Counted from the stretch's first letter, positions 698 through 36,105 are shown. The stretch is DNA of 37,765 bases from a virus (IMGVR_UViG_643348545_000015:1-37765); one strand, 5' to 3'. The notes: generated from the letters alone by a model not told the origin. Program-made: numbers and translations.

Positions 698-1060
698 GGG
701 GCTGATTCTGGATTCGACGGGATTTGCGAAACCCAAGGTGCATGCCGAGGGGCGGTTGGCCTCGTAAAAAGCCGCAAAAAATAGTCGCAAACGACGAAAA
801 CTACGCTTTAGCAGCTTAATAACCTGCTTAGAGCCCTCTCTCCCTAGCCTCCGCTCTTAGGACGGGGATCAAGAGAGGTCAAACCCAAAAGAGATCGCGT
901 GGAAGCCCTGCCTGGGGTTGAAGCGTTAAAACTTAATCAGGCTAGTTTGTTAGTGGCGTGTCCGTCCGCAGCTGGCAAGCGAATGTAAAGACTGACTAAG
1001 CATGTAGTACCGAGGATGTAGGAATTTCGGACGCGGGTTCAACTCCCGCCAGCTCCACCA
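698..1060 (+). ncRNA. ssrA: tmRNA (SsrA), 363 nt
   Basis: Starts GGGGCTGATTCTGGATTCGACGGG, contains the tag reading frame GCAAACGACGAAAACTACGCTTTAGCAGCTTAA (ANDENYALAA*), ends with the tRNA-like acceptor ...GGTTCAACTCCCGCCAGCTCCACCA. Confidence 0.96.
1016..1060. repeat. attL core: 45-bp 3' end of ssrA, direct repeat of 36061-36105
   Basis: ATGTAGGAATTTCGGACGCGGGTTCAACTCCCGCCAGCTCCACCA is identical at both positions; flanking sequence diverges on both sides. Confidence 0.9.
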
Positions 1061-1070
1061 AATAAATCAA

Positions 1071-1103
1071 GGGGTTACGTGAAAGCGTAGCCCCTTTTTC
1101 TTT
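1071..1103 (+). terminator. Rho-independent terminator after reconstituted ssrA
   Basis: 9-bp stem GGGGTTACG / CGTAGCCCC (one G-U pair), 6-nt loop, then TTTTTCTTT. Confidence 0.5.
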
Positions 1104-1183
1104 GGTAGTGGCGGCAAAATGGCGACAGACTTTTGCGTCCATCTTGCCTGTCGCCATCTTGAAATCATGCAAAGAGGTTTCAC

Positions 1184-1666
1184 ATGGAAGAACTTCACTT
1201 TGTTTACATCAATGCAAATGGTCGTATCGGTGTTCACTCTATACAGAGCATCAGTTATAGCGAAAATCATATACAGGGCATTTGTAAGAACACCGATCGA
1301 ATAAAAACCTTCCGAAAAGACCGCATTCTTAAACAGTACGATTCACCAGAACAAGCCATTCAGGAGTGCGCGTCATTCCTCCCCGAAAACTACTCACATC
1401 TCACCAAGCAGTCTGGTCCGAAAAAAAATACATTCGATGTATGTTTCACCGGATTTAAGAAAGCAGATAAAGAAAGATTGGTTGATAAGGCGAATGAACA
1501 AGGATTAACGGTAAGAACCTCTGTAACCCAAAGCCTTCAGATGCTCTGTTGCGGTTACAATGCAGGCCCATCAAAAGTATCGGCAGCCCGGATGAAAGGC
1601 ACAATCATCATAGATGAGCCTGGCTTTATACATTTTCTTGAAACGGGTGAGATCCCAGATGAATAA
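1184..1666 (+). CDS. Hypothetical cargo protein with C-terminal BRCT-like domain
   Basis: 160-aa ORF with RBS AAGAGG 8 nt before the ATG. C-terminal half (FDVCFTGFKKADKERLVDKANEQGLTVRTSVTQSLQMLCCGYNAGPSKVSAARMKGTIIIDEPGFIHFL) follows the BRCT pattern of NAD-ligase C-termini. N-terminal half unassigned. Confidence 0.6.
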   Translation: MEELHFVYINANGRIGVHSIQSISYSENHIQGICKNTDRIKTFRKDRILKQYDSPEQAIQECASFLPENYSHLTKQSGPKKNTFDVCFTGFKKADKERLVDKANEQGLTVRTSVTQSLQMLCCGYNAGPSKVSAARMKGTIIIDEPGFIHFLETGEIPDE

Positions 1667-1667
1667 A

Positions 1668-1685
1668 AACCTGCCGTAGCAGGTT
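1668..1685. terminator. Bidirectional hairpin between the BRCT gene and ogr
   Basis: AACCTGC-CGTA-GCAGGTT, with a T-run on the minus strand (TTTTTAT) and CTCTTTCTC on the plus strand. Confidence 0.4.
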
Positions 1686-1692
1686 CTCTTTC

Positions 1693-1911
1693 TCAAAAAT
1701 TCATATGCCCCTGACCACCTGGCAATGGATGTGGAGGAGCAGTAGCAATCAGTGCGGGTGTCACAATAAACCGGACCACTGTTTCATGGGTAACAAAAGT
1801 GCTCCCGCAGTTAATATTTTGGCACTGGCAGTAACGCTCTTTGGTGCTTTCAGTTACTTGAAAACTGCTCCTTGTGTGTGCCGCATGACCACACTTTGGA
1901 CAATTCATCAT
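1693..1911 (-). CDS. ogr: Late-gene transcriptional activator, zinc finger (Ogr / 186 B)
   Basis: 72 aa from the internal ATG: MMNCPKCGHAAHTRSS...KERYCQCQNINCGSTF...PHPLPGGQ, the C2C2 Ogr pattern. The longer ORF-track extension to 1956 is probably not translated. Confidence 0.85.
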   Translation of the reverse strand: MMNCPKCGHAAHTRSSFQVTESTKERYCQCQNINCGSTFVTHETVVRFIVTPALIATAPPHPLPGGQGHMNF

Positions 1912-1979: not shown

Positions 1980-3080
1980 TTATTCCATTTCAAGATCATC
2001 AATCTTCACTTCGAGTTCAATACTGGTTGTAAAACCGTTATCCGGGCTGACGGTATGTGTCAGAGTCGTAATGGTCCATTCCGCATCATCTATCGGCTGT
2101 TTAAAACCACTGACCTTCACAGGCATTTCCGTGTAGAGATCTGCCCGCCCTTCCGCCAGTTGTAGCGAGAATGACGCAACGCCACGTTGCAGGCGTTCCC
2201 ACTGCATTTTCGCTGCCCGTTCAGCGTTGCTCCGGTTGGCATAAGTGCGATTAAGTACCAGCACGTTTTCATCCGTCCCCACCAGGTAATCGCCCTGCTT
2301 CGCTTCCGGCTCTTTCTTCTGCTTCTTAGTCCTGCGCTTACGCTTCACCGTAGTGCTTTCTTTCTTCGCGGGTTCGCGGGTATGCAACCAGCTGGCAATT
2401 ACCCCCGTGTAAGCTCCGCGATCTGCCAGGGTAAAGCGGTGACTGTCGCCGTCCTTACGTGTGATAGTAATCACCGGCAGTGGTTTACCGCTGGCGCTTT
2501 TGCCCTGTCCCTGCCGGATGAATAACAGATTGCCATTTTTCACCGATGCAATGGCACCGTACTGGCGCGCCAGCCGCATCAAAAAACTGCCGTCACTCTC
2601 ATTAGTCTGGTCTATATGCTCCACAGGCTTATCCGACAGGTCTTTACCCAGTGCCATCTTCAGCTTGTGCCGCGCGGCTATTTCCTTCACCACTTCCCCG
2701 ATGGTGGTGTTATGCCACGATTTTTCACGGCGGGTATTCAGCGTTTCCCGAAAATCAGCACTTCGCGCCCGGATAGTCAGGCGGTCCGGTGCGCCAGTGT
2801 GTTCAATCTCGTCCACCGTGAATGCCCCTTTCGGGAAAAGCGGCTGCCCCTTCCAGCCCAGCGCCAGCGTAATGACCGCACCACGGCGCGGCAGCACGAT
2901 TTTTCCGTCGGCGTCGTCCAGCTCCAGATCAAGCTGGTCCGCTTCAAAGCCCCGGTTATCCGTCAGCGTAAGCCCCATCAGGCGTTTGTCCAGCACAGTG
3001 GTGATATCCTTCCCCTCAATACTGATGCTGAATGCGGGAGTTTTGTTGCCTTTGTTAAGCAGTTCAGAGCTGAAATTCAC
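1980..3080 (-). CDS. D: Tail protein D (late control gene D family)
   Basis: 366 aa, FSISIEGKDITTVLDKRLMGLTLTDNRGFEADQLDLELDD... GTG start overlapping the U stop (GTGA). Confidence 0.88.
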   Translation of the reverse strand: MNFSSELLNKGNKTPAFSISIEGKDITTVLDKRLMGLTLTDNRGFEADQLDLELDDADGKIVLPRRGAVITLALGWKGQPLFPKGAFTVDEIEHTGAPDRLTIRARSADFRETLNTRREKSWHNTTIGEVVKEIAARHKLKMALGKDLSDKPVEHIDQTNESDGSFLMRLARQYGAIASVKNGNLLFIRQGQGKSASGKPLPVITITRKDGDSHRFTLADRGAYTGVIASWLHTREPAKKESTTVKRKRRTKKQKKEPEAKQGDYLVGTDENVLVLNRTYANRSNAERAAKMQWERLQRGVASFSLQLAEGRADLYTEMPVKVSGFKQPIDDAEWTITTLTHTVSPDNGFTTSIELEVKIDDLEME

Positions 3081-3562
3081 GACAGCAGCCCTCCCACCGT
3101 TTTACTGATATCGCTTAAGGCAGACGTTGCCGTATCCTGCAAATTATTCAGCTGCGCACTGAGATCACCGAACATATCGGACAGGGATTCATCCACCCGT
3201 TTGAGCGACAGGGTAAACTCAATCCGGCGCGGCATACCATCGCGGAAAAACTCCGTTTTAGTCTGATTCAGTCCCTCAATCACATACATGCCGTAAATCG
3301 TGCCGCTGCCTTCAATCAGGGGCCATGCTTTTCCCTGTTCTGCCATCTGCTCCAGAGCCAGCAACGACAGCCTGCCGCCCGTTATCTCCGGCATAAGAAC
3401 ACCAGAAAGCGTCAGCATGTCGTTGTCCGGTCCCAGAAACTGCGTGGACGGACGACGGTTTACCCGGCTGTTTGCCGCATGTCGCCAGCTGCGTTGATAC
3501 TGCAGTTCCTGATACGGAACGGTGCGCAGCATAAACACGTACAATCCCAGCACCATCATCAT
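3077..3562 (-). CDS. U: Tail protein U
   Basis: 161 aa MMMVLGLYVFMLRTVPYQELQYQRSWRH..., P2 gpU-like; position between T and D. Confidence 0.88.
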   Translation of the reverse strand: MMMVLGLYVFMLRTVPYQELQYQRSWRHAANSRVNRRPSTQFLGPDNDMLTLSGVLMPEITGGRLSLLALEQMAEQGKAWPLIEGSGTIYGMYVIEGLNQTKTEFFRDGMPRRIEFTLSLKRVDESLSDMFGDLSAQLNNLQDTATSALSDISKTVGGLLS

Positions 3563-6500
3563 GCGTCGTATCCCCCCTGATCGCTGTAGTTACTCCTGGC
3601 TTTTGCCTTCAGCCTGCGTTCACGTTCATCAAGCTGGCGTGCCACCTCCCGCGCAATATCCTGCGCACTTTGTCCTGGCTGCGTCTGAATGATGATCTGC
3701 GTCGGTGCCTCAATCCGGTGAACGGGCGGCACAGTGGCTGCACGACTCACCATCGCTTCGCCGCCTTTCGCGGGAAGTGCCAAAGGATGCAACGGTGGAA
3801 GCTCTGCAGGCGCGGCAGCAACGCCCATCATTCCGGCAACAACGGCAGCCAGTGCAGCTGTATTTCTCCGGCTGGTCACATTTGCCGGGCCGTTAACAAT
3901 TTCCGGCCCGTTTTCACCGACGATGCCAAACTGCCCACGCGGGATATAGCCGCCGCTGTCATACATCCCCGCAAAGCCATATCCCCATGACGGAAAACCC
4001 CCCGATGGCATCATCACTTTACCGTCTGCATTCACCGTCGCAGGTTGCTGACGCGTCACTCTTTCCGGCAGTTTCGCCTTTGCAGCCTCTTTACTGACAA
4101 TGCCGAGTTTCTCCAGCAACCAGGAAACGCCGGATTTCAGGGAGTCCAGCGGATGCATGACCATATTCAGCCCTTCCGCCAGTGCCTCCCCGAATCGCCG
4201 CCCCATTGCCGCTGCACTCTGCAGTTCGGCAGAGGTCGACTTAACGGGCGTCAGCAGATCAGTAAACCAGCCCCACAGCGCCTGTACTTTGTCGCCAATC
4301 CACTGGAACACGGGCTTAAGCGGTTCGAATGCTGCACTGACGGGACCTGCCGCCGCTTTGAATCCTTCCACCACGCCACCAAGAAATGCGGTGATGGGTT
4401 GCCAGTATTTCCAGACAACCAGCGCCACGCCCGCCAGTGCAGTAACCACAAGACCTATCGGACTGAGCAGAGCACCTAACAGACCAGATACGGCATACAG
4501 GGCAACGCGCAGCATCGCCAGTGGACCAGATGCCAGTACTCGCAGCACCGTGCCTGCGGAGGCCAGTCCACCGCGCAGTACCGCCAGAGGATTCATAAAC
4601 ATCACAGCAACAGCACGTAAACCGGATAATCCAGACCGCAAAAGTGCAACCGGCGCACCTGCTACAGTTTTCAGGACATTTCCCGTCAGTGATGCCGTGC
4701 GGCGCAAAGACGACAACGGCGCAGTAAGTAAACCTGCGGCGTTGCCCGATGAAGCAAGCCCGCGTCGCAGCAGTGCAAGTGGTGCGCCAGCCAACCAGGA
4801 CAACGCGCTGCTGGTTCGCGTTACTGCTGCCGTAACGGAAGGTAACGTTTTGATACCCAGCACAGAGAATCCCAGACGGATGACTGCCAGCGGCCCCAGC
4901 ACAGCAGCCAACACCACAGCCAGGGTGCCGAGGCCCACAGTAACAGCAGCCACAACCGCGGCTACTTTCATCAGTGTGCCCGTCAGTTCAGGGTTAGCTT
5001 CCACCCAGCGACGCAACGCCCCCGTGATGCTTTTCACCGTGTACAGAATATCCATCAGCGGCTGGCGCAGCGTTTCGCCCAGGCTGCTGAAGGTGTTCTG
5101 CGCTCCGGTTTTGACCAACAACCACTGCGCAGAAAGTGAGTCCTTGTTAATGTCGGATTCTTTCTGCATCGAACCGAGCGCATCATTGCCCGCTGTCAGT
5201 TTTAGCTGGCGCTGCAGTTCCGGCAGGTTGTTTGCCAGTTTCGCCGCATCATCGCCAAACTCTTTACCAAACAACATGGTCATGGCAGACAGGCGCTTAT
5301 CCTGCGGCAGTGCGTTCACCTTCTCCAGTACGCGCTGGATAGTTCCCATCGCATCCTTCGTCATCTGCTTTTCAATCACTTCAGGATTGAGTTTCAGCAG
5401 ATTCATTCCTTCAAAGAAACTCTTGCTTTGCATGGTCGCAATGGACAATTCACGCACCATCGCGTTGGCAGCACTGGCAGCGACCTCCGGCGCAGCACCC
5501 AGTGTCAGGAAGGTGGAACCCAGCGCCGCCGCTTTACGATAATCCAGACGATCAGCCACACCGCCCAGGCGTTGCATGACATCAATGATGTCTGCCCCTT
5601 TCGACATAGCGTTATCATCCAGATAGTTCAGCGCATCACCGAGCTGTTCAATATTGCGGGTTGGTATTTTGTAGAGCTGGGCGATTTTCCCCAGACTTTC
5701 TGACAGTTCATCAGCTGGCAGCTCAAAGGCTGTTGCCGCCTTTGCTGCCGTACTGGCGAAGGCCAGCAGGTCACGTTTCTGGTCCTCCCAGCTGTCGTCA
5801 GGGTTTGCCACATTCATGCGCGCACCACCTTCAACCAGTGCGGCGAAGTCCACAGCACCGTTTTCCATTGGCAGCTGTTCACTGGCAGCTTTGATGGCAT
5901 CCTGCATTTCGTAAAAACGCGCAGTGCGGTTGCCATTATCGTCACGCAGACCATTGACCTGCTTTGCCACACCTTTCATGGCATCTTCCATGCTGGTATA
6001 GCTTTTTACCGCCGCCATCACTGGCGCGCCCATTGCCAGCCCTGCAGCCGTGGTGGTGGCTCCGGCTCCTGCGATGCGATCGCGCACTTCAAGCCGTCTT
6101 GAGTATTGTTCTCTGGCAGCGTTCATCCGTGCCTGTTGTTCACCCAGACGTTTAAGTGCTTTTTTCTGGCCCTCCAGTGCCTGACGAGTTTCTTCGGCAT
6201 TTTTCTTAAGTTCTCGCTGGGCACTACTGAGTTGTCTGGTATCAATCCCTGATTCTTTAAGTGCCTGACGTTGTCTCTGGACCGCCCCCAACAAGCCGTT
6301 ATAGGTCTGCTGAAGTTCCTGTACTCGTGTTTTGGCCTGACTGAATAACTTTGCCTGCGCGGCGGTTGGCCTGTTAGTGGCAGCAAATTGTGTGGCGAGT
6401 TTTGCCGCCTCTTCGCGGGCTGCGTTCAGGTTGTTGGCTGTTATGGCTAGTTGCGAGCGCGTCTTGCGAAATTCATCAATTCTGCCAGCCTGCTTATTCA

Positions 6501-6636
6501 GTTCTTTGAGGCTGTTTCGGGTATTCTGAATTGCGCCAGCCAGCTCTTTCGAACTGGCCTGTGCAGCACGGAATGGGCGGGTGAGTTTGTCAACCGCATT
6601 AAGAATGACCTGCAGGCGCAGGTTATTATCACTCAT
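3559..6636 (-). CDS. T: Tail tape-measure protein T
   Basis: 1025-aa Ala/Gly/Leu-rich ORF with coiled-coil N-terminus, following the E/E' frameshift pair. Confidence 0.9.
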   Translation of the reverse strand: MSDNNLRLQVILNAVDKLTRPFRAAQASSKELAGAIQNTRNSLKELNKQAGRIDEFRKTRSQLAITANNLNAAREEAAKLATQFAATNRPTAAQAKLFSQAKTRVQELQQTYNGLLGAVQRQRQALKESGIDTRQLSSAQRELKKNAEETRQALEGQKKALKRLGEQQARMNAAREQYSRRLEVRDRIAGAGATTTAAGLAMGAPVMAAVKSYTSMEDAMKGVAKQVNGLRDDNGNRTARFYEMQDAIKAASEQLPMENGAVDFAALVEGGARMNVANPDDSWEDQKRDLLAFASTAAKAATAFELPADELSESLGKIAQLYKIPTRNIEQLGDALNYLDDNAMSKGADIIDVMQRLGGVADRLDYRKAAALGSTFLTLGAAPEVAASAANAMVRELSIATMQSKSFFEGMNLLKLNPEVIEKQMTKDAMGTIQRVLEKVNALPQDKRLSAMTMLFGKEFGDDAAKLANNLPELQRQLKLTAGNDALGSMQKESDINKDSLSAQWLLVKTGAQNTFSSLGETLRQPLMDILYTVKSITGALRRWVEANPELTGTLMKVAAVVAAVTVGLGTLAVVLAAVLGPLAVIRLGFSVLGIKTLPSVTAAVTRTSSALSWLAGAPLALLRRGLASSGNAAGLLTAPLSSLRRTASLTGNVLKTVAGAPVALLRSGLSGLRAVAVMFMNPLAVLRGGLASAGTVLRVLASGPLAMLRVALYAVSGLLGALLSPIGLVVTALAGVALVVWKYWQPITAFLGGVVEGFKAAAGPVSAAFEPLKPVFQWIGDKVQALWGWFTDLLTPVKSTSAELQSAAAMGRRFGEALAEGLNMVMHPLDSLKSGVSWLLEKLGIVSKEAAKAKLPERVTRQQPATVNADGKVMMPSGGFPSWGYGFAGMYDSGGYIPRGQFGIVGENGPEIVNGPANVTSRRNTAALAAVVAGMMGVAAAPAELPPLHPLALPAKGGEAMVSRAATVPPVHRIEAPTQIIIQTQPGQSAQDIAREVARQLDERERRLKAKARSNYSDQGGYDA

Positions 6637-7065
6637 CGTTGGCCCCGCTTCTCTGAATCGCTTTATACCGCCATTCCAGCACTTCGGTCAGCGGCATAAC
6701 GTCAGTAACGGATGGCGGCCAGTGAAAGATGGTGGCGATATCAGCCACCAGATCGTCAACCGTCAGGCTGTCGGTAAACCGGCAAGCACCGACTTCTTCA
6801 ACAAAAAAGTGACAACCTCAACCGACATGGCAGTGAGATCTGCCGGGTCCATCTCTGCAATTTCCTGTGCAGTCAGTGCCGGACTGGAGATGCGGGGGAT
6901 CACGGTCATCATCGCGTTCACATCCATATCCATAATGGCCTGCAGGCGTGTACCGCGCAGCGCACCGGACTGCGGTTTACGCAGCACAATTTCGGTGATT
7001 TCTGTTTTACCGCGCTTGATGGGGGTATCCAGTTGAATAGTCTTTTCAGTCTGCTTATCGCTCAT
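6629..7065 (-). CDS. E: Tail assembly chaperone E and E+E' (programmed -1 frameshift)
   Basis: The 0 frame ends at 6763 (100 aa). Slippery heptamer T_TTT_TTG on the minus strand (6803-6809) lets the -1 frame continue to a TGA at 6629-6631 that overlaps the T start codon. Confidence 0.8.
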
Positions 7066-7119
7066 TTTGCTGTCCTGTAAATTGGGTTCTGGCGCGGTAT
7101 CCCGCGCCGTTCAGATACA

Positions 7120-7635
7120 TCAGAGGCCGAGGGCGTTGCGGTGCGCTTCCATCAGGTCCACACCGTCCACAATTTCCACCATGTTGATAAGGTCCACTTC
7201 ATAGAGCACCTCACCATTTATAGTCAGCTTCGCGTAGCTGTTGGTACTGGTCACTTTGGTGGTGTTGCTTTCGCCCGTCTTCCACTCGCCGGAATCCACT
7301 TCTTTGTGACGTCCACGCACCACAAGCTCCACGGCCTGCACTTCCCCGGTATCGTCACGCTGGATAGAGCCGGTAAAGCGCAACTGGATACCATCCACCG
7401 TGGCTTTGCCCATCTGCTTAAACAGCAGCAGTTCAGTACCACCAATGGAAAATTCCGTATCCAGTGCGCCGTCATCCAGCCCCAGATCCACATCCACTGC
7501 ACCCGGCATTCCGCCGCCGCGATACTTCTCATATTTGCGGGTAAATTTCGGCAGCGTCAGCGACTCAACGATCCCCTGCCAGTTGTTCCCGTCATTAAAC
7601 AGGTTCAGGTGTTTTAATTTGCGTGGTAAAGCCAT
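7120..7635 (-). CDS. FII: Tail tube protein FII
   Basis: 171 aa MALPRKLKHLNLFNDGNNWQG...; order FI-FII-E-T as in P2. Confidence 0.9.
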   Translation of the reverse strand: MALPRKLKHLNLFNDGNNWQGIVESLTLPKFTRKYEKYRGGGMPGAVDVDLGLDDGALDTEFSIGGTELLLFKQMGKATVDGIQLRFTGSIQRDDTGEVQAVELVVRGRHKEVDSGEWKTGESNTTKVTSTNSYAKLTINGEVLYEVDLINMVEIVDGVDLMEAHRNALGL

Positions 7636-7644
7636 GTTGTCCCC

Positions 7645-27433: not shown

Positions 27434-29521
27434 TCAAATTTTCAGCAAGGGGACAGTTATTGCCACGAGTCCAAGGGGACAGTTATTGCCACGAGTCCAA
27501 GGGGCGCAAGCGCCCTGGTCGGCTGCCGCCTCCTGAACGTCAACGGCCTTACGAACCATTTTCCACTTCACGGCATGAGTGCAGATTTTGCCCTCTGCAA
27601 TGGGTGACCAGATGCCATAAATACGAATGCCGTGATCGCCATAGGCGGTCGGCTCTTCGTTGATTTCATAAGCGGTTCTGATGAGGTGATATTTACGGGG
27701 AACCAGTACGCCGCCCTGCTTCATGATGTAGGTGGCAAAACAACCAGCATCAGCTGCAGCCAGAATGGCATCAAGGCGCGGGTTATCCAGTACCGGCGCA
27801 CCTGCTTTTTTGTCACCCTGTTGCCTTGCCGCCTGACCAGCCAGCAATCGCAGTTCACGGTAAGCCTGACGCCCCGGAATGCCAAAGAAGCGGAATTGCT
27901 GAACACGATGCAGAGACGCCCAGGCATTAACGTATTCAGCGTTATCACGCAGAGATTTACCCGTTTCCTTGCTGATCTCGCCAGCCAGACCACGCCCGTC
28001 AATGTTCTTACTGATGTATTTCGCGATGTAGCTAGTCGGCGTTCCTTTGCGCGGGTTTATCAGCTCAGACTTAAAGCGTGGCCCCGTGTTATTACCCAGC
28101 TCCTCGCGGTCTTCACGGATAGCAAACTTACGCAACAATGCAGTAATGGCGCGGCGGTCTTTTTTGCGCATGAAACACAACAGGTGCCAGTGAACTGTGC
28201 CGTCATGATGCGGCTCAGCCACCCGCACGCCATACCAGCGCAACCCGGCTTTGTGCATCGCCTTACGAAATGCAGCAAACATGCCGACCAGATAATCACT
28301 GCTTTGTCTTACCGTCGCATTTGTCCAAGTCGGGTTGGGCCTACCGTTATTTAGCGTGGAATGGAAACGTGACGGACAGGTGATGGTGTAGAAAACGGCG
28401 CAGTCACCGCGCATTTCCGCGATAAGCTCCAGACCTTTAACACAGGCCATCATCTCATTGCGGCGATGCGCAGGGTTGCTGCTGCTGGCGTTTACCACAT
28501 CCTCCATGTCCAGCGTGTCGCCGTCTTCGTTCACCAGTTCATGAGAACGGAAAAACTCCAGCGACTTACGGCGCTGCTCACGTTTATGCATCACGGCTTC
28601 ATAGCTGACATAGGGAGATGCTTTTTTGCTGACCAGGCAAACAGCACGCAACTGCTCTTCCCGCCATTCGCAACGCATCTTCCACAATTTCCGATACCAC
28701 CAGTCGGCGCACAGCATACGCGCCAGCGACCCCGGAATGAGTTCATAGGGCACGGGTTTACGGCGGTTTCTTTTCCGGCGGAGTTGCTCAAACGCAGGCG
28801 GTATGACATCCAGTCGCAGGGTTTCCGCCGCCACCTTTTCCCATGTCTTGCGGATTTCTTCTGGCTTAACGTCATCGGTGGCATACAAATCGCCACAAGC
28901 GGCATCAAGGCACATGCTCATATGCGCAGCTACCAGGGTGGACAGGCGTTTCACCTGATCCTGACTCATTTCAGGCAGGATCAGCAGACCGTCCAGCCCT
29001 TCATGGCTTGCCATAAAGCGAAAAGAAGTGGATAGCTGACTGTCGCGTACATGCTCCAGTCGTTCCAGACATGGCTTAATCGTCTCACGCAAATAGCGGG
29101 AATAAGCCTTTGGCCTGCCCAGGCTGCTGAAGTATTCAATACGTTGCATCAGCGGCTTGCTGATATGGGAAGGCTGGGCGTTAACGTCCGCCAGAATGAC
29201 CATGCCCGGATTAAAACGCTGCTGCTCATGCGCCAGCTTTGCCCGGCTAATGAGCTTATCCTGCTCCATTTCGCGCTGGACAGGATCACGTGATTCATTA
29301 AAGAAATAACGCTCCCATACCTGATCACTCAGAGCCTCGCGGCGCAGTTGTTCCTGCTCGTTATCGGTAGCGTACAGAGTGATCAGGTTTGAAAGCGCAG
29401 AAACCGGCGCAACTTCCGCCGGGTCCAGATAAGGGTTAATGGCCTTTTTCGGGCTGTTCCATGAGAATGCTGCGGCGACCTCGTTAAAGCCGCTGCAGTT
29501 GTTCATATCAGCATGGCTCAT
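27434..29521 (-). CDS. A: Rolling-circle replication initiator endonuclease A
   Basis: 695 aa with HUH-type motif VHWHLLCF and tyrosine motif YIAKYISK. Confidence 0.9.
27446..27504. repeat. Tandem direct repeat, 2.3 copies of a 26-bp unit
   Basis: CAAGGGGACAGTTATTGCCACGAGTC at 27446-27471 and 27472-27497, plus CAAGGGG; lies in the last ~25 codons of A. Confidence 0.9.
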
Positions 29522-30375
29522 GCACGCACTCCGTACACGGCAGAACTATCCACGCCACGCGAAGGATCAAATCCCACCCAGCAGCGCGGCCCGGAAACAG
29601 CGATGATTTCTGTTGCAGATTTACTCTCACCAGCTGCTACACCGATGCTGCGTTTTGCCTTGATGTAGTGGTGAGTAAAATTGCGATACAGCGAACGGAT
29701 CAGGGATGTATCACTGTTAGAAACAATGACCGGATGTCCTTCTGATGACCGATGTTCAAGAACGGATGCCAGGTGATACTGGTCATCTTCAGTGAAACCA
29801 TCAGTGTGATAGCCGGAAAACGTACCGTCATACGGCGGATCGCAATACACCACATCCCCCACCTGCAGCATCGCCAGCGTTTCATCAAAGCTTGCGCAGA
29901 TAAACGTTGCTCGCTGGGCTTTTTCTGCAAATGTGCGAAGTTCTTTTTCAGGGAAATACGGATTTTTATAATTACCGTAGGGAATGTTGAAATGCCCGCT
30001 CTTGTTATAGCGACATAAACCACGGTAACCGTGACGATTGAGATACAGGAAATATACCGCTTTCATGAAATCAGTAATTTCAGTGGAGTAATTAAACTCC
30101 TGCCTTATGTTGTAATAAGCCACCTCCCTGTTTGCGATCTCAAATAAAACTCTGGCGCGAGATATAAACGATTCACAATCAGCGGCAACCTTTTTATAGA
30201 GGTTGATTAAATCAGGATTAATATCCGCAACCAGATAGCTGGGGTAATCCGTCTCCATCATCACAGCACAAGAACCCGCGAAAGGTTCAACCAGTCGCGG
30301 GCCTGCAGGAAGGTGTTTTTTCAGTTCGGACATAATGGCGGTTTTATTACCCGCCCATTTCAGGATGGTGCTCAT
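29518..30375 (-). CDS. DNA adenine methyltransferase (Dam-like)
   Basis: Start [11 protein letters not shown]... after AGGAGGTG; DPPY motif ([10 protein letters not shown]); stop overlaps the A start. Confidence 0.85.
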
Positions 30376-30550
30376 ACAGCACCTCCTGCAATAACATATC
30401 CTAAAGCTTCTAATGGGGTTAATGAGCGAATTGATAGCATCACCCATTGTTCTGAAACTGCCATGACGTCATTAACCGGAAGCACATGAGAGATAACCGC
30501 GGCCCATTCCCTACCCGTAAATACGCCATGCTTCCGGTAATGACTCCAAC

Positions 30551-31054
30551 TTACTGATAGTGTTTTATGTTCAGATAATGCCCGATGACCTTGTCATGCA
30601 GCTCCACCGATTTTGAGAACGACAGTGACTTCCGTCCCAGCCTTGCCAGATGTTGTCTCAGATTCAGATTATGTCGCTCAATGCGCTGAGTGTAACGCTT
30701 GCTGATAACGTGCAGCTTTCCCTTCAGGCGTGATTCATACAGCGGCCAGCCATCCGTCATCCATACCACGACCTCAAAGGCCGACAGCAGGCTCAGAAGA
30801 CGCTCCAGTGTGGCCAGAGTGCGTTCACCGAAGACGTGCGCCACAACAGTCCTCCGTATCCTGTCATACGCGTAAAACAGCCAGCGCTGACGTGATTTAG
30901 CACCGACGTAGCCCCACTGTTCGTCCATTTCAGCGCAGACAATCACATCACTGCCCGGTTGTATGCGCGAGGTTACCGACTGCGGCCTGAGTTTTTTAAG
31001 TGACGTAAAACCGTGTTGAGGCCAACGCCCATAATGCGTGCACTGGCGCGACAT
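30551..31054 (-). CDS. insB: IS1 InsB frame (transposase made as InsAB' by -1 frameshift)
   Basis: ...[44 protein letters not shown]... open frame overlapping the 3' end of insA. Confidence 0.9.
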
Positions 31055-31248
31055 CCGACGCCATTCATGGCCATATCAATGATTTTCTGGTGCGTACCGG
31101 GCTGAGAGGCGGTGTAAGTGAACTGTAGTTGCCATGTTTTACGGCAATGAGAGCAGAGATAGCGCTGATGTCCGGCAGTGCTTTTGCCGTTACGCACCAC
31201 GCCTTCAGTAGCGGAGCAGGAAGGACATCTGATGGAAATGGAAGCCAC
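30973..31248 (-). CDS. insA: IS1 InsA
   Basis: 91 aa [40 protein letters not shown]... Confidence 0.93.
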
Positions 31249-31447
31249 GCAAGCACCTTAAAATCACCATCATACACTAAATCAGTAAGTTGGCAGCATT
31301 ACCCATGCTTCCATTCGCAAAGAGAAAGAACATCACCAACTTTATAGCCACGATCGTCTTTACGAAGTTCAGCCGTCTTTTGACCTGCAACCACAGCGTT
31401 GAAATACTTAGGTGCAATTTTTAATTGATGGATACGCACAGCCCCTG

Positions 31448-31675
31448 TCATACAGCACCTCCGTTGTAATGTTTGCCTTTCAGCTCTGCGATTTCCTGGC
31501 AAGTAATGCAAAGCTGCACACCCGGAATGGCGCGGCGTCGTGCTGGCGGAATTGGCGCTTCACACTCAATGCAAAGCACGCGAGACACGCCCGGTGTTTT
31601 GGCACGAGCAGCACGGATATGGCGCTGGCGTTCTTCTTCAACGCGCTGCTGTACGAGATCCATTGCATCAGCCAT
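31448..31675 (-). CDS. TraR/DksA-type C4 zinc-finger protein
   Basis: 75 aa with [26 protein letters not shown]; stop overlaps the ASCH start. Confidence 0.7.
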
Positions 31676-31908
31676 TAGTGGATCTCCTGCGCTTCGTTCT
31701 GGATTGCTTCAGCAGTCACACGCAGCAGTTCTGCCGCTTCCACGTGGTTTAGCTGACGGGATGAGATATGACACGCCAGGCTATCAAGGCGAGCTGCCAT
31801 TGCTTCAGCCCTTGCCCGGCGTTCTTCCAGACGAGCCTCTGTCAGTAAAATATTAAGCCCTGCATCATCCGGTCCGGTTTTAGTCGTAAGGATTTCAATA
31901 TTACGCAT
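31675..31908 (-). CDS. Hypothetical early-operon protein
   Basis: MRNIEILTTKTGPDDAG..., 8 nt after AGGAGA. Confidence 0.55.
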   Translation of the reverse strand: MRNIEILTTKTGPDDAGLNILLTEARLEERRARAEAMAARLDSLACHISSRQLNHVEAAELLRVTAEAIQNEAQEIH

Positions 31909-31975
31909 AATCAATTCTCCTGAATTTAGATAAAGGGATGCCCGGCGGGTTTACGCCATTAATTTCATTAGTTGG

Positions 31976-32317
31976 TTAATTCGGCATGGTTAGCCGTTTG
32001 GGAAATAAGCTCACCACTGCACGAAAATGATTCATTGCTTTAATCAACTCCCGCTTTTCGTCAGTGGTCAGCTCATTAATGCTGATGCTATGACGTTCAG
32101 CTGGAATTTTTGCCATAAAGAATATGGCAGCCAGTGCTCGTTTATTTTGTTCGTTATTGATATCCCGTGGATCACGCATATCTTTAATAAACCGCTCAAG
32201 CTCTGACTCAATATTCAGGCCAAATACTTTCGCCCTTAACTCCGCAATGTGATTAAGTCCATTCAGGCGTTCACCGGGGCTTAATGGAACAGTCGCCGCA
32301 GCGCCATTAATTGCCAT
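31976..32317 (-). CDS. Hypothetical early-operon protein
   Basis: 113-aa ORF with ATG start, same strand as the early operon. Confidence 0.55.
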   Translation of the reverse strand: MAINGAAATVPLSPGERLNGLNHIAELRAKVFGLNIESELERFIKDMRDPRDINNEQNKRALAAIFFMAKIPAERHSISINELTTDEKRELIKAMNHFRAVVSLFPKRLTMPN

Positions 32318-32339
32318 AATTCATATCCCCAAAACGCAA

Positions 32340-32564
32340 CTATCGTTCTTTGTTCTTACGGTAACGTTCAAGAGGAGATACATTTTTTCGTATCGTCTCT
32401 TTAACCTGCTCTCCCCGTAAAAACGTCCCATCCCTTAGCGTGAAAAAGTAACTGCCATCGCCCGACAACGACGGATAACAACAGAGCAAATCATCTTCAG
32501 GTACTGAATAACTCTCCCCTCTGTAACGAAACTGATAAACCACTTCACTTTCCGCTGCATACAT
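32340..32564 (-). CDS. Hypothetical early-operon protein
   Basis: 74-aa ORF, RBS GGAGAAAG 5-6 nt before the ATG. Confidence 0.5.
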   Translation of the reverse strand: MYAAESEVVYQFRYRGESYSVPEDDLLCCYPSLSGDGSYFFTLRDGTFLRGEQVKETIRKNVSPLERYRKNKER

Positions 32565-32731
32565 TTTGACTTTCTCCGTTTCCTCGTGGTCAATTCAGAC
32601 AGCAATTCATCTTGTGAATGACATGGATGCCAGCGTTTACCATCCTCACCCATGATCCAGCCGTGACCGTAGTGCATTGCCGGGCTTTGTTTTACCAGCA
32701 GCGATGCAAATGATGGTTCTTTCGTCAGCAT
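32435..32731 (-). CDS. Hypothetical early-operon protein (3' end uncertain)
   Basis: Start MLTKEPSFASLL... 5 nt after GAGGTG just past the cII stop; the frame overlaps the next gene by 130 nt, so the true end or a frameshift is unresolved. Confidence 0.4.
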   Translation of the reverse strand: MLTKEPSFASLLVKQSPAMHYGHGWIMGEDGKRWHPCHSQDELLSELTTRKRRKSKCMQRKVKWFISFVTEGRVIQYLKMICSVVIRRCRAMAVTFSR

Positions 32732-32738
32732 AAGCACC

Positions 32739-33248
32739 TCACAGCAAACCGAATGAAGCACCGAGGCCAGTCACGGTATCAACTGCACTCACCATCGCAG
32801 GATTAGCCTGTAAACGGGCCTGCAATGAAACAGCCGCCAGCGCCATCAGTCGTGTTACAGAGTTAATGCTGCTGATAGCATCACGACGACCGGCACTAGT
32901 TTTTACATCACCAGATACCGCACCTGCTGCAACACGCCCGATCTCTGCAGTTGCGCTCATGACGTAATGCGGCAGTTTCTCTTTTGCCACCTCATTAATC
33001 GGTACACATGGCAGACAATGAATCTGTGCCAGAAAACCATCTACCAGCGTTGAATCTTCAGTCAGATCGGTAAGCAGCCAGATTTCTGGTGCGGTTAATA
33101 AATGAGGCTGAGCTGGGTTCAGCTTGTTCCGCAGAATCTGCACATTCATGCCTGCACGTTCTGCCAGTTGCACCAGGTTGTGACGCAGTGCAAAAGCCCT
33201 ACAGGCTTCATCGAAATGCGGATGTTTGGAAATCTTGTAATCAAACAT
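32739..33248 (-). CDS. cII: CII-type lysogeny establishment regulator (phage 186 CII-like)
   Basis: 169 aa [49 protein letters not shown]...SFGLL, closely matching my recollection of 186 CII. Confidence 0.85.
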
Positions 33249-33280
33249 GGTGCCCCCTTAGAAAGTTCCCATAATTGAAC

Positions 33281-33523
33281 TTACTTACCAACAATGACGC
33301 GGAAGTTGGAATGACCGAGGGATTCACGGACCTGATCAGTTTTGTACATCAGATAACGAAGGCTTACGCGGCCTTTATTTTTTTCTTTCTTGACCATGTA
33401 CTTAGCAAGTTGACCATGGTGAATTTTTTGGTAAACAGAGCCACGGGAAATGCCCTCCCACTCTGCGAACTCTGCAGGCGTAGCCATCTCTTTTGGTACA
33501 CGAATTGAAATATCAGTACTCAT
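33281..33523 (-). CDS. apl: Apl/Cox-type excisionase and lytic-lysogenic switch protein
   Basis: 80 aa with HTH TPAEFAEWEGISRGSVYQKIHHGQ; first gene of the rightward-promoter operon, divergent from cI. Confidence 0.8.
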   Translation of the reverse strand: MSTDISIRVPKEMATPAEFAEWEGISRGSVYQKIHHGQLAKYMVKKEKNKGRVSLRYLMYKTDQVRESLGHSNFRVIVGK

Positions 33524-33602
33524 AGTGCAGTATCTCTTACTTTGTGTGCGTGTTAGTTCGTTTTAGCTCGTCTCTTTAACTCTCACATCAAGAGACACGA
33601 AG

Positions 33603-33631
33603 ACATTACGATCTTGATTCAAGATTGTCAA
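33603..33631 (-). promoter_or_regulatory. Candidate lytic promoter pR with operator palindrome in the spacer
   Basis: On the minus strand: -35 TTGACA (33626-33631), 17-bp spacer containing palindrome ATCTTGA-T-TCAAGAT (33611-33625), -10 TAATGT (33603-33608). Confidence 0.55.
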
Positions 33632-33644
33632 ATGGAGATTACCA

Positions 33645-34277
33645 ATGTTAAACATCAGAATGGGTTCCGATACGGGAGGTAAGGCAGCTATTGAGAGGCT
33701 GCTTGAGGCTTATGGATTCACAACTAAGCAGGCATTAAGCGAGCACCTGAATGTCTCAAAAAGTACTATGGCAAACAGAGTGTTACGTGACAGTTTTCCT
33801 GCTGACTGGATAATTCAGTGTGCACTAGAAACCGGTGTTTCGTTACTTTGGTTAGCCACTGGACAGGGAAGCATGAAAGAAGGATACGAGCCTGAGAAAA
33901 GATCTCATAACGAGAACAAACAAGCAATTAAACCGTTATCCAAACTCATAACTCCATCTATTCCTAAAGGAACCTTGGAAAATGGACAACTCAGTATTGA
34001 TGAAGAGATTTTCCTAGACCACAGCATATTACCTGCAGATTATGAAGAATCGATGTTCTTAGAAACCCCTACTGATTGTTATCTCATCGATAAATCAGTT
34101 AAACAAGTCAGCAATGGATTCTGGCTTATCAATATTGATGGAATGATTATTATTGCAAAAATCATGCGGATTCCCGGCAATAAGATTGTAGTAAATCAAG
34201 ATGAAGCGTCTTTCGAGTGCTCTGCTGATGATGTGGAAGTTATTGGGCGTGCAGTCAAAGTAATAAAGAGTATCTAA
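33645..34277 (+). CDS. cI: Immunity repressor CI (186-type)
   Basis: 210 aa with N-terminal HTH (...LSEHLNVSKSTMANRVLRDSF...CALETGVSLLWLATGQG); I see no LexA-like Ser-Lys autocleavage motif; directly upstream of int. Confidence 0.8.
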   Translation: MLNIRMGSDTGGKAAIERLLEAYGFTTKQALSEHLNVSKSTMANRVLRDSFPADWIIQCALETGVSLLWLATGQGSMKEGYEPEKRSHNENKQAIKPLSKLITPSIPKGTLENGQLSIDEEIFLDHSILPADYEESMFLETPTDCYLIDKSVKQVSNGFWLINIDGMIIIAKIMRIPGNKIVVNQDEASFECSADDVEVIGRAVKVIKSI

Positions 34278-34279
34278 AC

Positions 34280-35296
34280 ATGACTGTCAGAAAACAGCCA
34301 AACGGTAAATGGTTGTGCGAGTGCTATCCCAATGGACGCAATGGCAAGCGCGTGCGTAAGCAATTTGCTACGAAAGGCGAAGCCATTGCTTTTGAAAGCT
34401 TCACAATGGAAGAAGTGAACAAAAAACCATGGCTGGGGGAAAAGGAAGATCGGCGACACCTATCAGAATTAATTGAGCAGTGGTATTCCCTGTATGGTCA
34501 AACACTCGCAGACCCCAAGCGCCTCATAGCGAAACTTAGAATTATCTGTAATGGTCTAGGCGATCCCATCGCTTCAGAACTGACAGCCGGTGACTTTACG
34601 AAATACCGCGAAGCACGGTTAAAAGGTGAAGTACGAAATGAAGATGGCACGTTTATGTCGCCCGTTAAGCCCCGCACGGTAAACCTTGAACAGCGCAATC
34701 TATCATCTGTTTTTGGTACACTGAAAAAGCTGGGCCACTGGTCAGCCCCCAACCCGCTTGCTGGGCTGCCAACATTTAAAATTGCTGAGAGTGAATTGGC
34801 GTTCCTGACCCCGGAAGAAATTAAACGTCTGCTGGATGCCTGCGCCGATTCTCAAAGCTCCAGCCTGCTTTTGATTGCAAAAATATGCCTGGCCACCGGC
34901 GCACGCTGGAGCGAAGCCGAAAACCTGCAGAGTCATCAGGTATCAAAATACCGTATCACTTATACCAAGACCAAAGGCAAGAAAAACCGAACTGTGCCTA
35001 TTTCTAAGGATTTATATGAAGAACTGCCTAAGAATAGGGGGAAGTTATTCACCCCATGCAGAAAAGCCTTTGAGCGTGCAGTAAAGCGGGCTGGTATCGA
35101 TCTGCCAGAGGGTCAATGTACTCACGTTCTGCGTCATACATTCGCTAGCCATTTTATGATGAATGGTGGAAACATATTGGTTTTGCGGGATATCCTAGGA
35201 CATTCAGATATAAAAATGACCATGGTCTATGCACACTTCGCCCCAGACCATTTAGAAGATGCCGTAACTAAAAATCCTTTATTTAATTTGAGGTAA
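34280..35296 (+). CDS. int: Tyrosine integrase (P2 Int family)
   Basis: 338 aa with C-terminal catalytic region ...HVLRHTFASHFMMNGGNILVLRDILGHSDIKMTMVYAHF... Confidence 0.93.
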   Translation: MTVRKQPNGKWLCECYPNGRNGKRVRKQFATKGEAIAFESFTMEEVNKKPWLGEKEDRRHLSELIEQWYSLYGQTLADPKRLIAKLRIICNGLGDPIASELTAGDFTKYREARLKGEVRNEDGTFMSPVKPRTVNLEQRNLSSVFGTLKKLGHWSAPNPLAGLPTFKIAESELAFLTPEEIKRLLDACADSQSSSLLLIAKICLATGARWSEAENLQSHQVSKYRITYTKTKGKKNRTVPISKDLYEELPKNRGKLFTPCRKAFERAVKRAGIDLPEGQCTHVLRHTFASHFMMNGGNILVLRDILGHSDIKMTMVYAHFAPDHLEDAVTKNPLFNLR

Positions 35297-35306
35297 GTAG
35301 TAATTT

Positions 35307-35975
35307 ATGAATAGCGAACTAGAGTTACTTATAAAAATATTATTCCCTTCCCTATCTGCCATTATATCCTTATTAGGGCTTAAAACAGGGTGGACTTATA
35401 AAAAAGACAAACTATTCACATCACGTAAAAACATTAGCGAATTTTCATATCAGATGTATAAAAGCAGTGAAGATCCGACCTTCAAAAAACTGGCGGAAGA
35501 TTACGGCATTGCTGCATTAACCAAAGATAACACATTGACAAAAAAACAAAGATTAATATTACTCAACACAACAAACCCCGTTAGCGATATAGATGATTAT
35601 TCCAAATGTCAAAGTCTAATTTCCATTACCACCCATAAAGAAATATTCGCATGGAATAAAAAAAGATATAAATACAGCATATATAGAAAATTAATAAAAA
35701 TTATAACAACTCTAATTTACTTCATGGGCAGTCTCATCGTAGCACTTCCTTTCAGTTATTCTGTTGTAGTAAGTGCTAAGATGATGGAGAAGATAAACCA
35801 TCTAACTACTTGGCAATACTTTGGTTTAAGCAGCTATTTTGTGGTATCGGGAGTAGCAATATGCTTTATCTGCCTAGATAAGCTCTCCAAGATTAAGATC
35901 GCCGAGAGATTAATCGTTTCAAATAGGCGTTTAGGCGACAAATGCAGTGGCGGCACTTTGGCGGCAGAAAGTTAA
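35307..35975 (+). CDS. AT-rich hypothetical membrane protein (cargo)
   Basis: 222 aa with about three hydrophobic helices (LELLIKILFPSLSAIISLLGL; IITTLIYFMGSLIVALPFSYSVVV; YFGLSSYFVVSGVAICFICL); Lys/Asn/Ile-rich; starts 11 nt after the int stop. Confidence 0.6.
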   Translation: MNSELELLIKILFPSLSAIISLLGLKTGWTYKKDKLFTSRKNISEFSYQMYKSSEDPTFKKLAEDYGIAALTKDNTLTKKQRLILLNTTNPVSDIDDYSKCQSLISITTHKEIFAWNKKRYKYSIYRKLIKIITTLIYFMGSLIVALPFSYSVVVSAKMMEKINHLTTWQYFGLSSYFVVSGVAICFICLDKLSKIKIAERLIVSNRRLGDKCSGGTLAAES

Positions 35976-36060
35976 AAACCCATAAAACGGACAGACACCG
36001 CATAAATCTAACCAACTGAAAATCAAAGCAAATCATTGTTTTTACAGACATTGAAATGCT

Positions 36061-36105
36061 ATGTAGGAATTTCGGACGCGGGTTCAACTCCCGCCAGCTC
36101 CACCA
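36061..36105. repeat. attR core: displaced 45-bp 3' end of ssrA
   Basis: Identical to 1016-1060. Confidence 0.9.

Follow-up and report, generated by a model that had tools for sequence, protein, structure and literature searches.

A Fels-2-type prophage in ssrA carrying an IS1 element and a 26-bp duplication at its replication origin

The stretch of DNA analyzed here (the window, 37,765 nt) very probably holds a Fels-2-type prophage that was integrated in ssrA by its own tyrosine integrase and has since, recently, been crippled by an IS1 element and a 26-bp duplication. The prophage is probably replication-defective. A Fels-2-type P2-family prophage in ssrA is an already known element type, since Fels-2 and SopEPhi integrate there (PMC3448106), and RefSeq genomes already contain annotated prophages that are nearly the same (99.6%); the prophage finding as given is a textbook case.

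The element is a complete P2-family (Peduoviridae) myovirus genome of the Fels-2/Cartapus type, about 34.2 kb long before the later lesions. Its virion and packaging features are as follows:

1693 to 1911, minus strand: Ogr/B-type zinc-finger late activator, 67% identical to 186 B and 56% to P2 Ogr (PHROG 603)
1980 to 8817, minus strand: tail genes D, U, T (tape measure), E/E', FII (tube) and FI (sheath), by PHROGs and the Cartapus annotation
8960 to 9532, minus strand: Gin/Cin-type serine DNA invertase (Resolvase 3e-53, HTH_7), 85% identical to the Fels-2 invertase
9582 to 11465: invertible tail-fiber segment with 27-nt inverted repeats at its ends, 81% complementary; content: alternative fiber C-terminus (9554-10090), Tfa (10087-10692, plus strand), Tfa (10664-11083, minus strand) and the H C-terminus
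11080 to 14925, minus strand: tail fiber H and baseplate genes I, J, W and V, by PHROGs and domain matches
14994 to 20801, minus strand: S, R, lysis cassette (spanin, LysA-like, endolysin, holin), X, L, M, N (capsid) and O (scaffold), by PHROGs
20944 to 23744, plus strand: terminase large subunit P and portal Q, 97% and 89% identical to Fels-2 P and Q
26273 to 26291, minus strand: cos by sequence match, GGCGTGGCGGGGATACGAG, 14/19 to the P2 cohesive end

The syntenic late set (Q P, O N M L X, lysis, R S V W J I H, FI FII E T U D) is present, every late gene has a PHROG match, and the order is that of the Fels-2 and Cartapus annotations; across the late region the nucleotide sequence is about 96% identical to that of Cartapus and of CP019275. 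At cos, 58 nt match the annotated Cartapus cos end with 98% identity. The tail-fiber inversion module appears intact by sequence: the invertase lies beside inverted crossover sites, alternative fiber C-termini and Tfa genes, as in Gin/Cin/Hin systems, and the segment contains Collar, Caudo_TAP and Phage_tail_fib domains.

The regulatory region consists of three operons:

33645 to 35975, plus strand: lysogenic operon, with cI (33645-34277), int (34280-35296) and a 222-aa cargo ORF (35307-35975)
31448 to 33523, minus strand: promoter-proximal part of the early lytic operon, with apl, cII, fil, DUF5347, DUF2732 and a traR/dksA-like gene
26495 to 26986, minus strand: SOS operon, with a LexA box (26971-26986), a tumA-like gene (26927-26739, 62 aa) and a DinI-like tumB (26728-26495, 77 aa)

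CI carries PF07022 (2e-30) and PF16452 (7e-31) and is 32% identical to 186 CI; Apl, CII, Fil and Int are 30%, 68%, 60% and 55% identical to their 186 counterparts, and Int is only 39% identical to P2 Int. The genes apl, cII and fil (PF06892 and PF10893 are present) diverge from cI-int in the arrangement of the 186 record, and a protein comparison of the window found no homologues of P2 C, Cox or B. The LexA box, the window's sole perfect CTGT-N8-ACAG, precedes the tumA-like ORF by 44 nt and has a conserved counterpart in Fels-2; the DinI-like ORF is 41% identical to the C-terminal half of 186 Tum. Fels-2 and PSP3 likewise have a split tum (PMC3121763). A simple scan gave one pR-like site (33651-33624, minus strand) and no pL-like site in the cI-apl spacer, and no canonical sigma-70 promoter ahead of the tum operon. 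Taken together, the gene content (CI, Apl, CII, Fil and a LexA box before a split tum operon) supports a 186-type switch. The first-pass annotation had proposed both a 186-like rather than P2-like switch and a LexA-box operon, and both hold; its placement in the P2/186 family stands as to family, but the closest named relatives are Fels-2, SopEPhi and Cartapus, not 186 itself.

The lesions lie in the replication part of the early operon:

27081 to 29521, minus strand: replication gene A (HUH rolling-circle initiator), frameshifted (PF05840 6e-128; compared with the 804-aa L001 protein)
27446 to 27497: 26-bp tandem duplication on the ori nick-site core, placed by alignment to the annotated P2 and 186 ori
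29518 to 30375, minus strand: Dam-type N6-adenine methyltransferase (PF02086 1e-76)
30536 to 31303, minus strand: IS1, 768 bp, with 23-bp terminal inverted repeats, insA (91 aa) and insB' (167 aa)
30527 to 30535 and 31304 to 31312: 9-bp IS1 target duplication, CATGCTTCC

The element has a gpA-type initiator with the ori inside its own gene, which in this copy is frameshifted: a 695-aa ORF, native to residue 684 of 804, is followed by a stranded C-terminal ORF of 118 aa. An intact IS1 interrupts the early operon between traR and dam-A and splits a DUF3850 gene (30372-30535 and 31304-31452). IS1 is taken to be polar on downstream genes, here dam and A. No damage is seen in the late genes, in int, apl or cI, or at either att site. 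The first-pass annotation, which had treated the prophage as intact, noted neither lesion, nor the recurrence of the duplication elsewhere, nor the three-gene cargo cassette described below.

From these features we infer the regulation of the prophage and its loss of function. Integration would have joined attB to a phage attP carrying the last 45 nt of ssrA, leaving an intact ssrA at attL followed by the phage terminator, and at attR a displaced 46-nt copy beside the native terminator and glaH/csiD. Judged by homology, lysogeny would be held by a 186-type CI repressor, and induction would come through LexA derepression of the split tum operon, which encodes the putative antirepressor TumA and the DinI-like TumB; excision would be carried out by Apl and Int. 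Since then the prophage has gained the IS1, which lies ahead of dam and A in the early operon, and the duplication on the ori core, which truncates A after residue 684. Such a prophage is probably still derepressible and excisable, would neither replicate nor yield phage, and may still express its cargo genes. Because of the IS1 in the early operon and the frameshift in A, mitomycin C or UV would be expected to produce excision junctions but probably no phage.

That the prophage is instead fully functional, with the 695-aa A still initiating replication, IS1 insufficiently polar and induction yielding infectious phage, strikes us as improbable. The A protein of 186 has only 694 aa, the same size as the truncated one, and the PF05840 domain (residues 188-510) is untouched, so that the protein might retain some activity; however, the 120 residues lost here are conserved, as the 91.5% identity of the stranded 118 aa to Fels-2 A indicates. 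The same duplication is found in otherwise intact-looking prophages of unrelated strains, as if tolerated, yet it is rare (8 of 5426 complete E. coli genomes, or about 0.6% relative to the 1252 genomes with an ori-region match covering at least 80% of the query). The alleles do not form one lineage: in other prophages they sit on five or more distinct sequence backgrounds, beside non-duplicated relatives, as would be expected if dead ends kept arising and not if a functional variant were spreading. The remaining phage genes are all intact, which would favor function, but the IS1 sits within the early operon, upstream of A. In RefSeq the same duplication is elsewhere labeled "replication endonuclease, frameshifted".

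It is highly unlikely that the duplication, the IS1 or both are assembly or sequencing artefacts of the window. Neither lesion occurs in the closest relatives, and the IS1 at its present site is absent from all 5426 complete genomes, but the eight genomes with the identical duplication are independently finished, three IMG/VR contigs share it and another carries a three-copy form. The IS1, annotated in RefSeq matches as an IS1 family transposase, bears perfect hallmarks of transposition: its length, inverted repeats of about 23 bp, insA/insB' and a target duplication within the 8-9 bp of the family.

How the duplication arises is a separate question. The ancestral ori reads CCCCTTG-GACTCGTGGCAATAACTGT-CCCCTTG, and simple slippage during replication, from one 7-bp repeat to the other, accounts for the same duplication. 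A more speculative view, which we hold to be doubtful, is that the duplication is no random lesion but arises repeatedly from the chemistry by which the phage itself replicates. In that case gpA would end a rolling-circle round at the downstream pseudo-nick site rather than the true one, releasing circles lengthened by exactly 26 nt, in which the ori is duplicated and A is frameshifted. These genomes would be packageable and would lysogenize but never replicate again, and the resulting "self-tamed" prophages could possibly revert through loss of one repeat. If this is true, Fels-2-like phages continually seed bacterial populations with such prophages. A distant gpA carries an in-frame 33-bp form. 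An ori-centered duplication that recurs and inactivates A in independent prophages suggests a mechanistic hotspot for prophage domestication and could merit specialist attention.

The insertion itself shows in the following features:

698 to 1060, plus strand: ssrA (tmRNA), intact, tag ANDENYALAA (ARAGORN; Rfam RF00023, full model, 295.8 bits)
1016 to 1061: attL core, a 46-nt identity block made of the last 45 nt of ssrA plus one
36061 to 36106: attR core, a displaced copy of the ssrA 3' end
1069 to 1106, plus strand: phage-supplied intrinsic terminator, now 3' of ssrA
36233 to 36264, plus strand: native ssrA terminator, now separated from the gene, with which it is contiguous in empty-site genomes
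1109 to 1156: P' arm, three candidate Int arm-type sites TGGCGRCA (1109, 1120 and, inverted, 1149)
35948 to 35966, plus strand: P arm, two candidate arm-type sites TGGCGGCA

A repeat search of the window, read base by base, found a single exact direct repeat of the tmRNA 3' end around 35 kb of phage DNA, as had been described, with a start-to-start spacing of 35045; such a repeat has a calculated chance expectation of about 1e-19 in 37.8 kb. Its length had been given as 45 bp, which is correct for the ssrA portion, but the total identity is 46 nt, the extra base lying one beyond the ssrA CCA end. The edges are set by the preceding bases (G vs T) and the next bases (A vs T), and the matches to phage records run exactly from 1016 to 36106. 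The integrase is near attR, though not directly beside it as had been claimed, the 222-aa ORF lying in between. The right junction does lead into csiD, the flank reaching glaH (= csiD) at 36788.

Comparison with ssrA loci lacking the insertion, the check proposed in the first-pass annotation, confirms that the prophage insertion in the 3' end of ssrA is real. When the two flanks are joined in silico, the resulting sequence is present without a break, at 100% identity, in 851 of the 5426 complete E. coli genomes, so that the insertion is demonstrated rather than inferred, and in Nissle 1917 smpB-ssrA-glaH/csiD is contiguous; this is the opposite of inter-repeat DNA that belongs to the core genome with no empty neighborhood. 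The same ssrA-phage attL junction is present in 174 of 5426 (3%). Although ssrA is well known to attract a range of different elements and other island DNA follows attR in STEC relatives, the notion that the 35 kb are ancestral or island DNA with a repeat of other origin, for instance the remnant of a CP4-57-like island or a satellite targeting ssrA, has a negligible chance of being right and is already refuted by the empty sites, exact at base resolution. Also against it are the independent phage-record matches that stop precisely at the repeat boundaries, the cognate integrase, arm-type sites and Fels-2-identical attP, and a complete P2-type virion and replication gene set that belongs to neither island nor satellite.

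Since the sequence does not show where within the 46-nt core the crossover fell and its position is inferred, phage origin can be strictly proved for no more than the terminator and the bases outside the core. The earlier claim that the phage supplied the ssrA 3' end and its terminator thus stands for the latter and those bases, not strictly for the 3' end. The terminator-like hairpin (1069-1096) lies on the phage side, 9 nt past the CCA end; the Fels-2 attP flank has a near-identical sequence, and the 186 record annotates a lysogenic-operon terminator beside attP. In the circular phage it may serve as the terminator of the cI-int operon. The arm-type motif has 13 matches in the window against 4.1 expected, five of the 13 falling within about 110 bp of the att cores; the 186 record gives the arm consensus as YAYCGCCAYTY. 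For annotation of the locus it helps to know that ssrA is intact, that its terminator has been swapped and that the prophage is probably defective.

Apart from the 222-aa ORF, which has a hydrophobic N-terminus, the cargo comprises:

1184 to 1666, plus strand: 160-aa ORF, homologue of Cartapus gp32 (PHROG 2561, 2e-77)
23782 to 26131, minus strand: three-gene cassette in the cos-proximal gpA-gpQ hotspot, with a TIGR04255 protein (26131-25322), an HTH protein (25302-24640) and a 282-aa protein (24630-23782)

The 160-aa ORF has a weak BRCT-like C-terminus (E=0.001, below cutoff), and in Cartapus the homologous gene is a moron that lysogens express (PMC9928086, Table 1). The hotspot was defined in PMC9122126. 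The cassette keeps its gene order in phage and non-phage loci; against the PADLOC 2023 HMMs the TIGR04255 and 282-aa proteins had no match and the middle gene only weak HTH matches. A conserved, uncharacterized three-gene cassette in a validated defense hotspot could merit specialist attention.

Among known systems, Fels-2 (Felsduovirus) and SopEPhi share the gene order from ogr to int and the integration target. Fels-2 also has the same attP core with an almost identical P' arm and terminator, a Gin-type invertible tail fiber, Dam, the split tum operon and the LexA box, and its Int (92%), Apl (100%), DinI-like (100%), TumA-like (97%) and CII (90%) proteins are close. It differs in A (88%) and in CI, which at only 60% identity probably confers a different immunity. 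Cargo differs from that of Fels-2/SopEPhi at all three variable positions (beside attP, after int and in the cos-proximal hotspot), and the present host is E. coli, its copy carrying the IS1 and the A frameshift. Cartapus (Elveevirus), a Fels-2-like P2 phage and prophage of E. coli LF82 (PMC9928086), occupies the same ssrA-glaH site in LF82 and has the same 160-aa moron beside attP and the same cos, but differs in its DUF4145 hotspot cargo, a RES-domain gene after int and other lysis and tail-fiber details; it shows low-level spontaneous production, whereas the A gene of the present copy is broken. Phage 186 (Eganvirus) resembles the element in its CI/Apl/CII/Fil switch, probable face-to-face cI/apl arrangement, predicted LexA-controlled Tum-type induction, tRNA-targeting-type Int with a similar arm-site motif and ori inside gene A. 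Unlike the element, 186 integrates in tRNA-Ile genes, has a single 146-aa Tum fusion and the shorter A, and is without Dam, invertase and hotspot cassette, with protein identities of only 30-68%. P2 (Peduovirus) is not SOS-inducible and integrates at non-tRNA sites; it shares the late gene set and order, an Ogr-type activator, the gpA/ori arrangement, cos and a cos-proximal accessory locus (old/tin in P2), but has a C/Cox switch and gene B that are absent from the present element.

The left end of the window holds a tmRNA gene whose 3' end is present again some 35 kb downstream:

698-1060, + strand, ssrA (tmRNA), the one tmRNA gene in the window; it fits the full Rfam model (295.8 bits) and encodes the tag peptide ANDENYALAA

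The longest direct repeat that a repeat search detects in the window is 46 nt long and exact; its copies, at 1016-1061 and 36061-36106, have a spacing of 35045 bp. By simple arithmetic an exact repeat of 46 nt is expected by chance about 1e-19 times, and the repeat cannot be attributed to chance. The first-pass annotation had described it as a 45-bp duplication of the ssrA 3' end; when both junctions are read this length is right for the ssrA part, as the shared block comprises the final 45 nt of ssrA, but the identity includes the first base past the CCA end and is 46 nt in total. Because both copies are identical, bases of phage and host origin within this core are indistinguishable.

The claim that the element is an insertion was examined against the empty ssrA locus, the check suggested with the first-pass annotation, and the outcome favors insertion. 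The query was a 359-nt junction in which the left flank to 1061 is joined to the right flank from 36107. This junction is a single unbroken piece in 851 of 5426 complete E. coli genomes, with 100% identity in the listed top matches, which include Nissle 1917, ATCC 25922 and clone D i14, and the annotation of Nissle 1917 runs smpB, ssrA, glaH (csiD), lhgO with nothing between them. The occupied junction, with the ssrA 3' end joined to the present phage arm, occurs in 174 genomes. Matches to independent phage records start exactly at 1016 and end exactly at 36106, as predicted by an attP with the same core.

PHROG and Pfam assignments, together with annotated relatives, show that the 35 kb is a complete P2-family genome, with the following gene order:

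First, from the left: ogr/B-like activator; tail genes D, U, T, E/E', FII, FI
Next: Gin-type invertase and invertible tail-fibre segment; then H, I, J, W, V, S, R
Next: lysis cassette; X, L, M, N, O; P and Q on the opposite strand
Next: three-gene cargo cassette, cos, LexA-box operon, gene A, dam, several small early genes, fil, cII, apl
Right end: cI, int and one further cargo ORF, divergent from the early operon

A 174-aa ORF at 14961-15485 (+ strand) is probably spurious: it belongs to no family and runs antisense to tail-completion gene S (14994-15440), which is well supported. Close to this position, Cartapus, a P2/Fels-2-like prophage of E. coli LF82 (PMC9928086), has a genuine additional gene on the + strand, which the window lacks.

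The present copy carries two lesions that the first-pass annotation did not note. Compared with its STEC relative, the window contains 768 additional bp at 30536-31303, with terminal inverted repeats of 23 bp, ORFs of insA and insB' size and a target duplication of 9 bp (CATGCTTCC), and this insertion is an intact IS1. It interrupts a DUF3850 gene, a homologue of the non-essential P2 orf91, within the early operon and upstream of dam and A. The IS1 junction at this site is absent from all 5426 complete E. coli genomes, and the insertion is therefore recent and private to the present strain. The second lesion is in gene A, which encodes the rolling-circle replication initiator gpA and carries the ori. 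A 26-bp tandem duplication at 27446-27497 shifts the frame, and the product is native through residue 684 and then continues for 11 residues out of frame, compared with 804-809 aa for A of the relatives; the C-terminal 118 residues, which share 91.5% identity with Fels-2, are left in another frame. The remaining phage genes have the same lengths as those of relatives. From the sequence, this is most likely a recently crippled prophage, for which derepression and excision would be possible and replication would not. The main rival reading, in which the truncated A retains residual function, we think rather improbable, even though A of phage 186 is itself only 694 aa and the catalytic domain of the truncated protein is untouched.

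Alignment of the region to the annotated P2 nick site (gcgcctcGgagtcctgtcaataactgt) and the 186 ori (ctctcgGagttctgtcaataactgt) places the duplicated unit, CCCCTTGGACTCGTGGCAATAACTGT, as the ori core itself. The non-duplicated ancestor is CCCCTTG-GACTCGTGGCAATAACTGT-CCCCTTG, in which two 7-bp direct repeats have a spacing of 26 bp and the predicted nick falls within the first CCCCTTG. Slippage between these 7-mers would yield exactly the observed 26-bp product, and aberrant rolling-circle termination by gpA at the downstream pseudo-site would do so equally well.

The same duplication recurs in other prophages. Using a 59-nt query and a strict E-value, we found the exact two-copy form in 8 of the 5426 genomes, and RefSeq marks the duplicated A gene as frameshifted in both genomes examined (S88 and an O9:H10 pig strain). 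The S88 prophage matches the window in CI, Apl and CII, whereas that of the pig strain differs from it in CI, Apl, Int, cargo and chromosomal site. A pattern search of IMG/VR for two CAATAACTGT cores at 10-40 nt spacing gave 54 matches, for the most part due to chance. The two-copy form lies inside the gpA genes of three IMG/VR contigs, and one Fels-2-like A gene there has a three-copy form and is likewise frameshifted; a distant, intact gpA of 659 aa (only 37% identical) contains a partly diverged, in-frame 33-bp ori duplication.

The sequences listed with the ori duplication besides the window are the comparison sequences L022, L023, L024, L049, L054, L068 and L069, the last being the prophage of the pig strain. 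Of 1900 flanking positions, a single one distinguishes the window from a non-duplicated relative. The divergence of the window from every other duplication allele is 3-4% over the 1500 nt upstream and 4.5-8% over the 400 nt downstream. Among themselves these alleles differ by about 2-4% upstream and 2.5-6.5% downstream, except for the identical pair L024 and L068. Since the flanking haplotypes differ, with at least five backgrounds, the same 26-bp duplication appears to have arisen at least five times. Movement of the duplication alleles by recombination in very short conversion patches keeps some residual plausibility, as the sequence is invariant for about 45 nt upstream of the ori and for 26 nt downstream of it, and we favor recurrent origin. 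A literature search on P2 ori duplications returned nothing relevant, which is no proof of novelty.

The induction circuit lies close by. The window's only perfect CTGT-N8-ACAG, at 26971-26986, is 44 nt upstream of a 62-aa ORF that is followed by a 77-aa ORF of the DinI family. The 62-aa (tumA-like) protein shares 97% identity with its counterpart in Fels-2 and has no PADLOC match, and the DinI-like protein matches the Fels-2 protein at 100% identity and the C-terminal half of 186 Tum at 41%. The LexA box is conserved in Fels-2. In Fels-2 and PSP3 a stop codon splits tum, with the antirepressor encoded upstream and a DinI homologue downstream (PMC3121763). The LexA-box operon of the first-pass annotation is therefore real and corresponds to this split form of tum, whose function in the prophage is presumably the same, judging by homology.

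The tail-fibre switch has the same arrangement as in Fels-2 and Cartapus:

8960-9532, Gin/Cin-type invertase adjoining a 1.9-kb invertible segment
9582-9608 and 11439-11465, 27-nt inverted repeats bounding the segment, one of them within the H gene

The segment carries an alternative fibre C-terminus and two tail-fibre assembly (Tfa) genes, in opposite orientations.

AT-rich cargo genes occupy three variable positions:

1184-1666, orf160, 160 aa, weak BRCT-like C-terminus
23782-26131, hotspot cassette between portal gene Q and cos, encoding a TIGR04255-family protein, an HTH protein and a 282-aa protein without a family
35307-35975, orf222, 222 aa, hydrophobic N-terminus, last ORF of the cI-int operon; PHROG 21256, no known family

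The positions of orf160 and orf222 flank attP. The Cartapus homologue of orf160 is a moron, expressed in lysogens at 15-fold above background (PMC9928086). Cartapus has a RES-domain gene after int, and the pig-strain prophage has an AAA ATPase and DUF4276 pair between cI and int; orf222 has no PADLOC match. The gpA-gpQ hotspot has been shown to carry diverse anti-phage systems (PMC9122126). None of the three cassette proteins matches a system in PADLOC, PDB sequence searches with four cargo proteins gave no significant match, and the cassette protein accessions and the term TIGR04255 are absent from the supplements of PMC9122126 and from the other literature searched. With 50-57% identity, the three genes recur in this order in another P2-like prophage, and they do so too in the Nitrincola chromosome, at a non-phage site with a histidine kinase on one side and its response regulator on the other; the cassette thus behaves as an autonomous module.

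Both att arms contain matches to TGGCGRCA, of which the window has 13 compared with 4.1 expected by chance, five of them within about 110 bp of the att cores:

1109, 1120, 1149 (inverted), candidate arm-type sites of the P' arm
35948, 35959, candidate arm-type sites of the P arm

This layout resembles the 3+2 arm-type sites annotated in 186. A strong terminator-like hairpin (1069-1096) lies on the phage side directly past ssrA, and the native ssrA terminator (36233-36254) is now stranded beyond attR. The 186 record annotates a lysogenic-operon terminator beside attP, and by analogy the phage hairpin would normally end transcription of the cI-int operon while the phage is circular. On integration, ssrA and the cI-int operon would thus exchange terminators, leaving the attP-side hairpin behind ssrA, and the cI-int-orf222 operon appears to read through attR towards the native ssrA terminator.

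The element was placed by comparison with the proteins of 186, P2 and Fels-2. CI is 32% identical to 186 CI, has both 186-type CI Pfam domains and does not resemble P2 C. For Apl the identity is 30% to 186 and 100% to Fels-2, for CII 68% and 90%, respectively, for Fil 60% to 186, and for Int 92% to Fels-2, 55% to 186 and 39% to P2. Comparison with the P2 proteins found no homologues of Cox or B. The switch is thus 186-like rather than P2-like, as had been proposed, and the more exact placement is in the Fels-2/SopEPhi/Cartapus group. Next to the identical Apl, CI is only 60% identical to that of Fels-2 (33281-34277), a contrast that points to either a recombination boundary within the switch region of about 120 bp or differing constraints on the two genes.

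Overall, the observation of the first-pass annotation is confirmed and its interpretation supported. As element type, target and switch are all documented, the finding itself is already known; what is added is the corrected state of the present copy, with its IS1 and frameshifted A, together with the recurrence of the ori duplication and an uncharacterised cassette in the hotspot. In the late region the nucleotide identity to Escherichia phage Cartapus is about 96%; in the early region the identity to prophages of STEC strains such as STEC2018-553 is 99.6-99.7%. The attP halves of Fels-2, once joined, give the same core as the window, and its P' flank, including the hairpin with T-run and the TGGCGRCA motifs, equals window positions 1062-1130 almost base for base. 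PMC3448106 names ssrA as the integration target of Fels-2 and SopEPhi, and describes 186-type integrases as tending towards tRNA-like gene targets.
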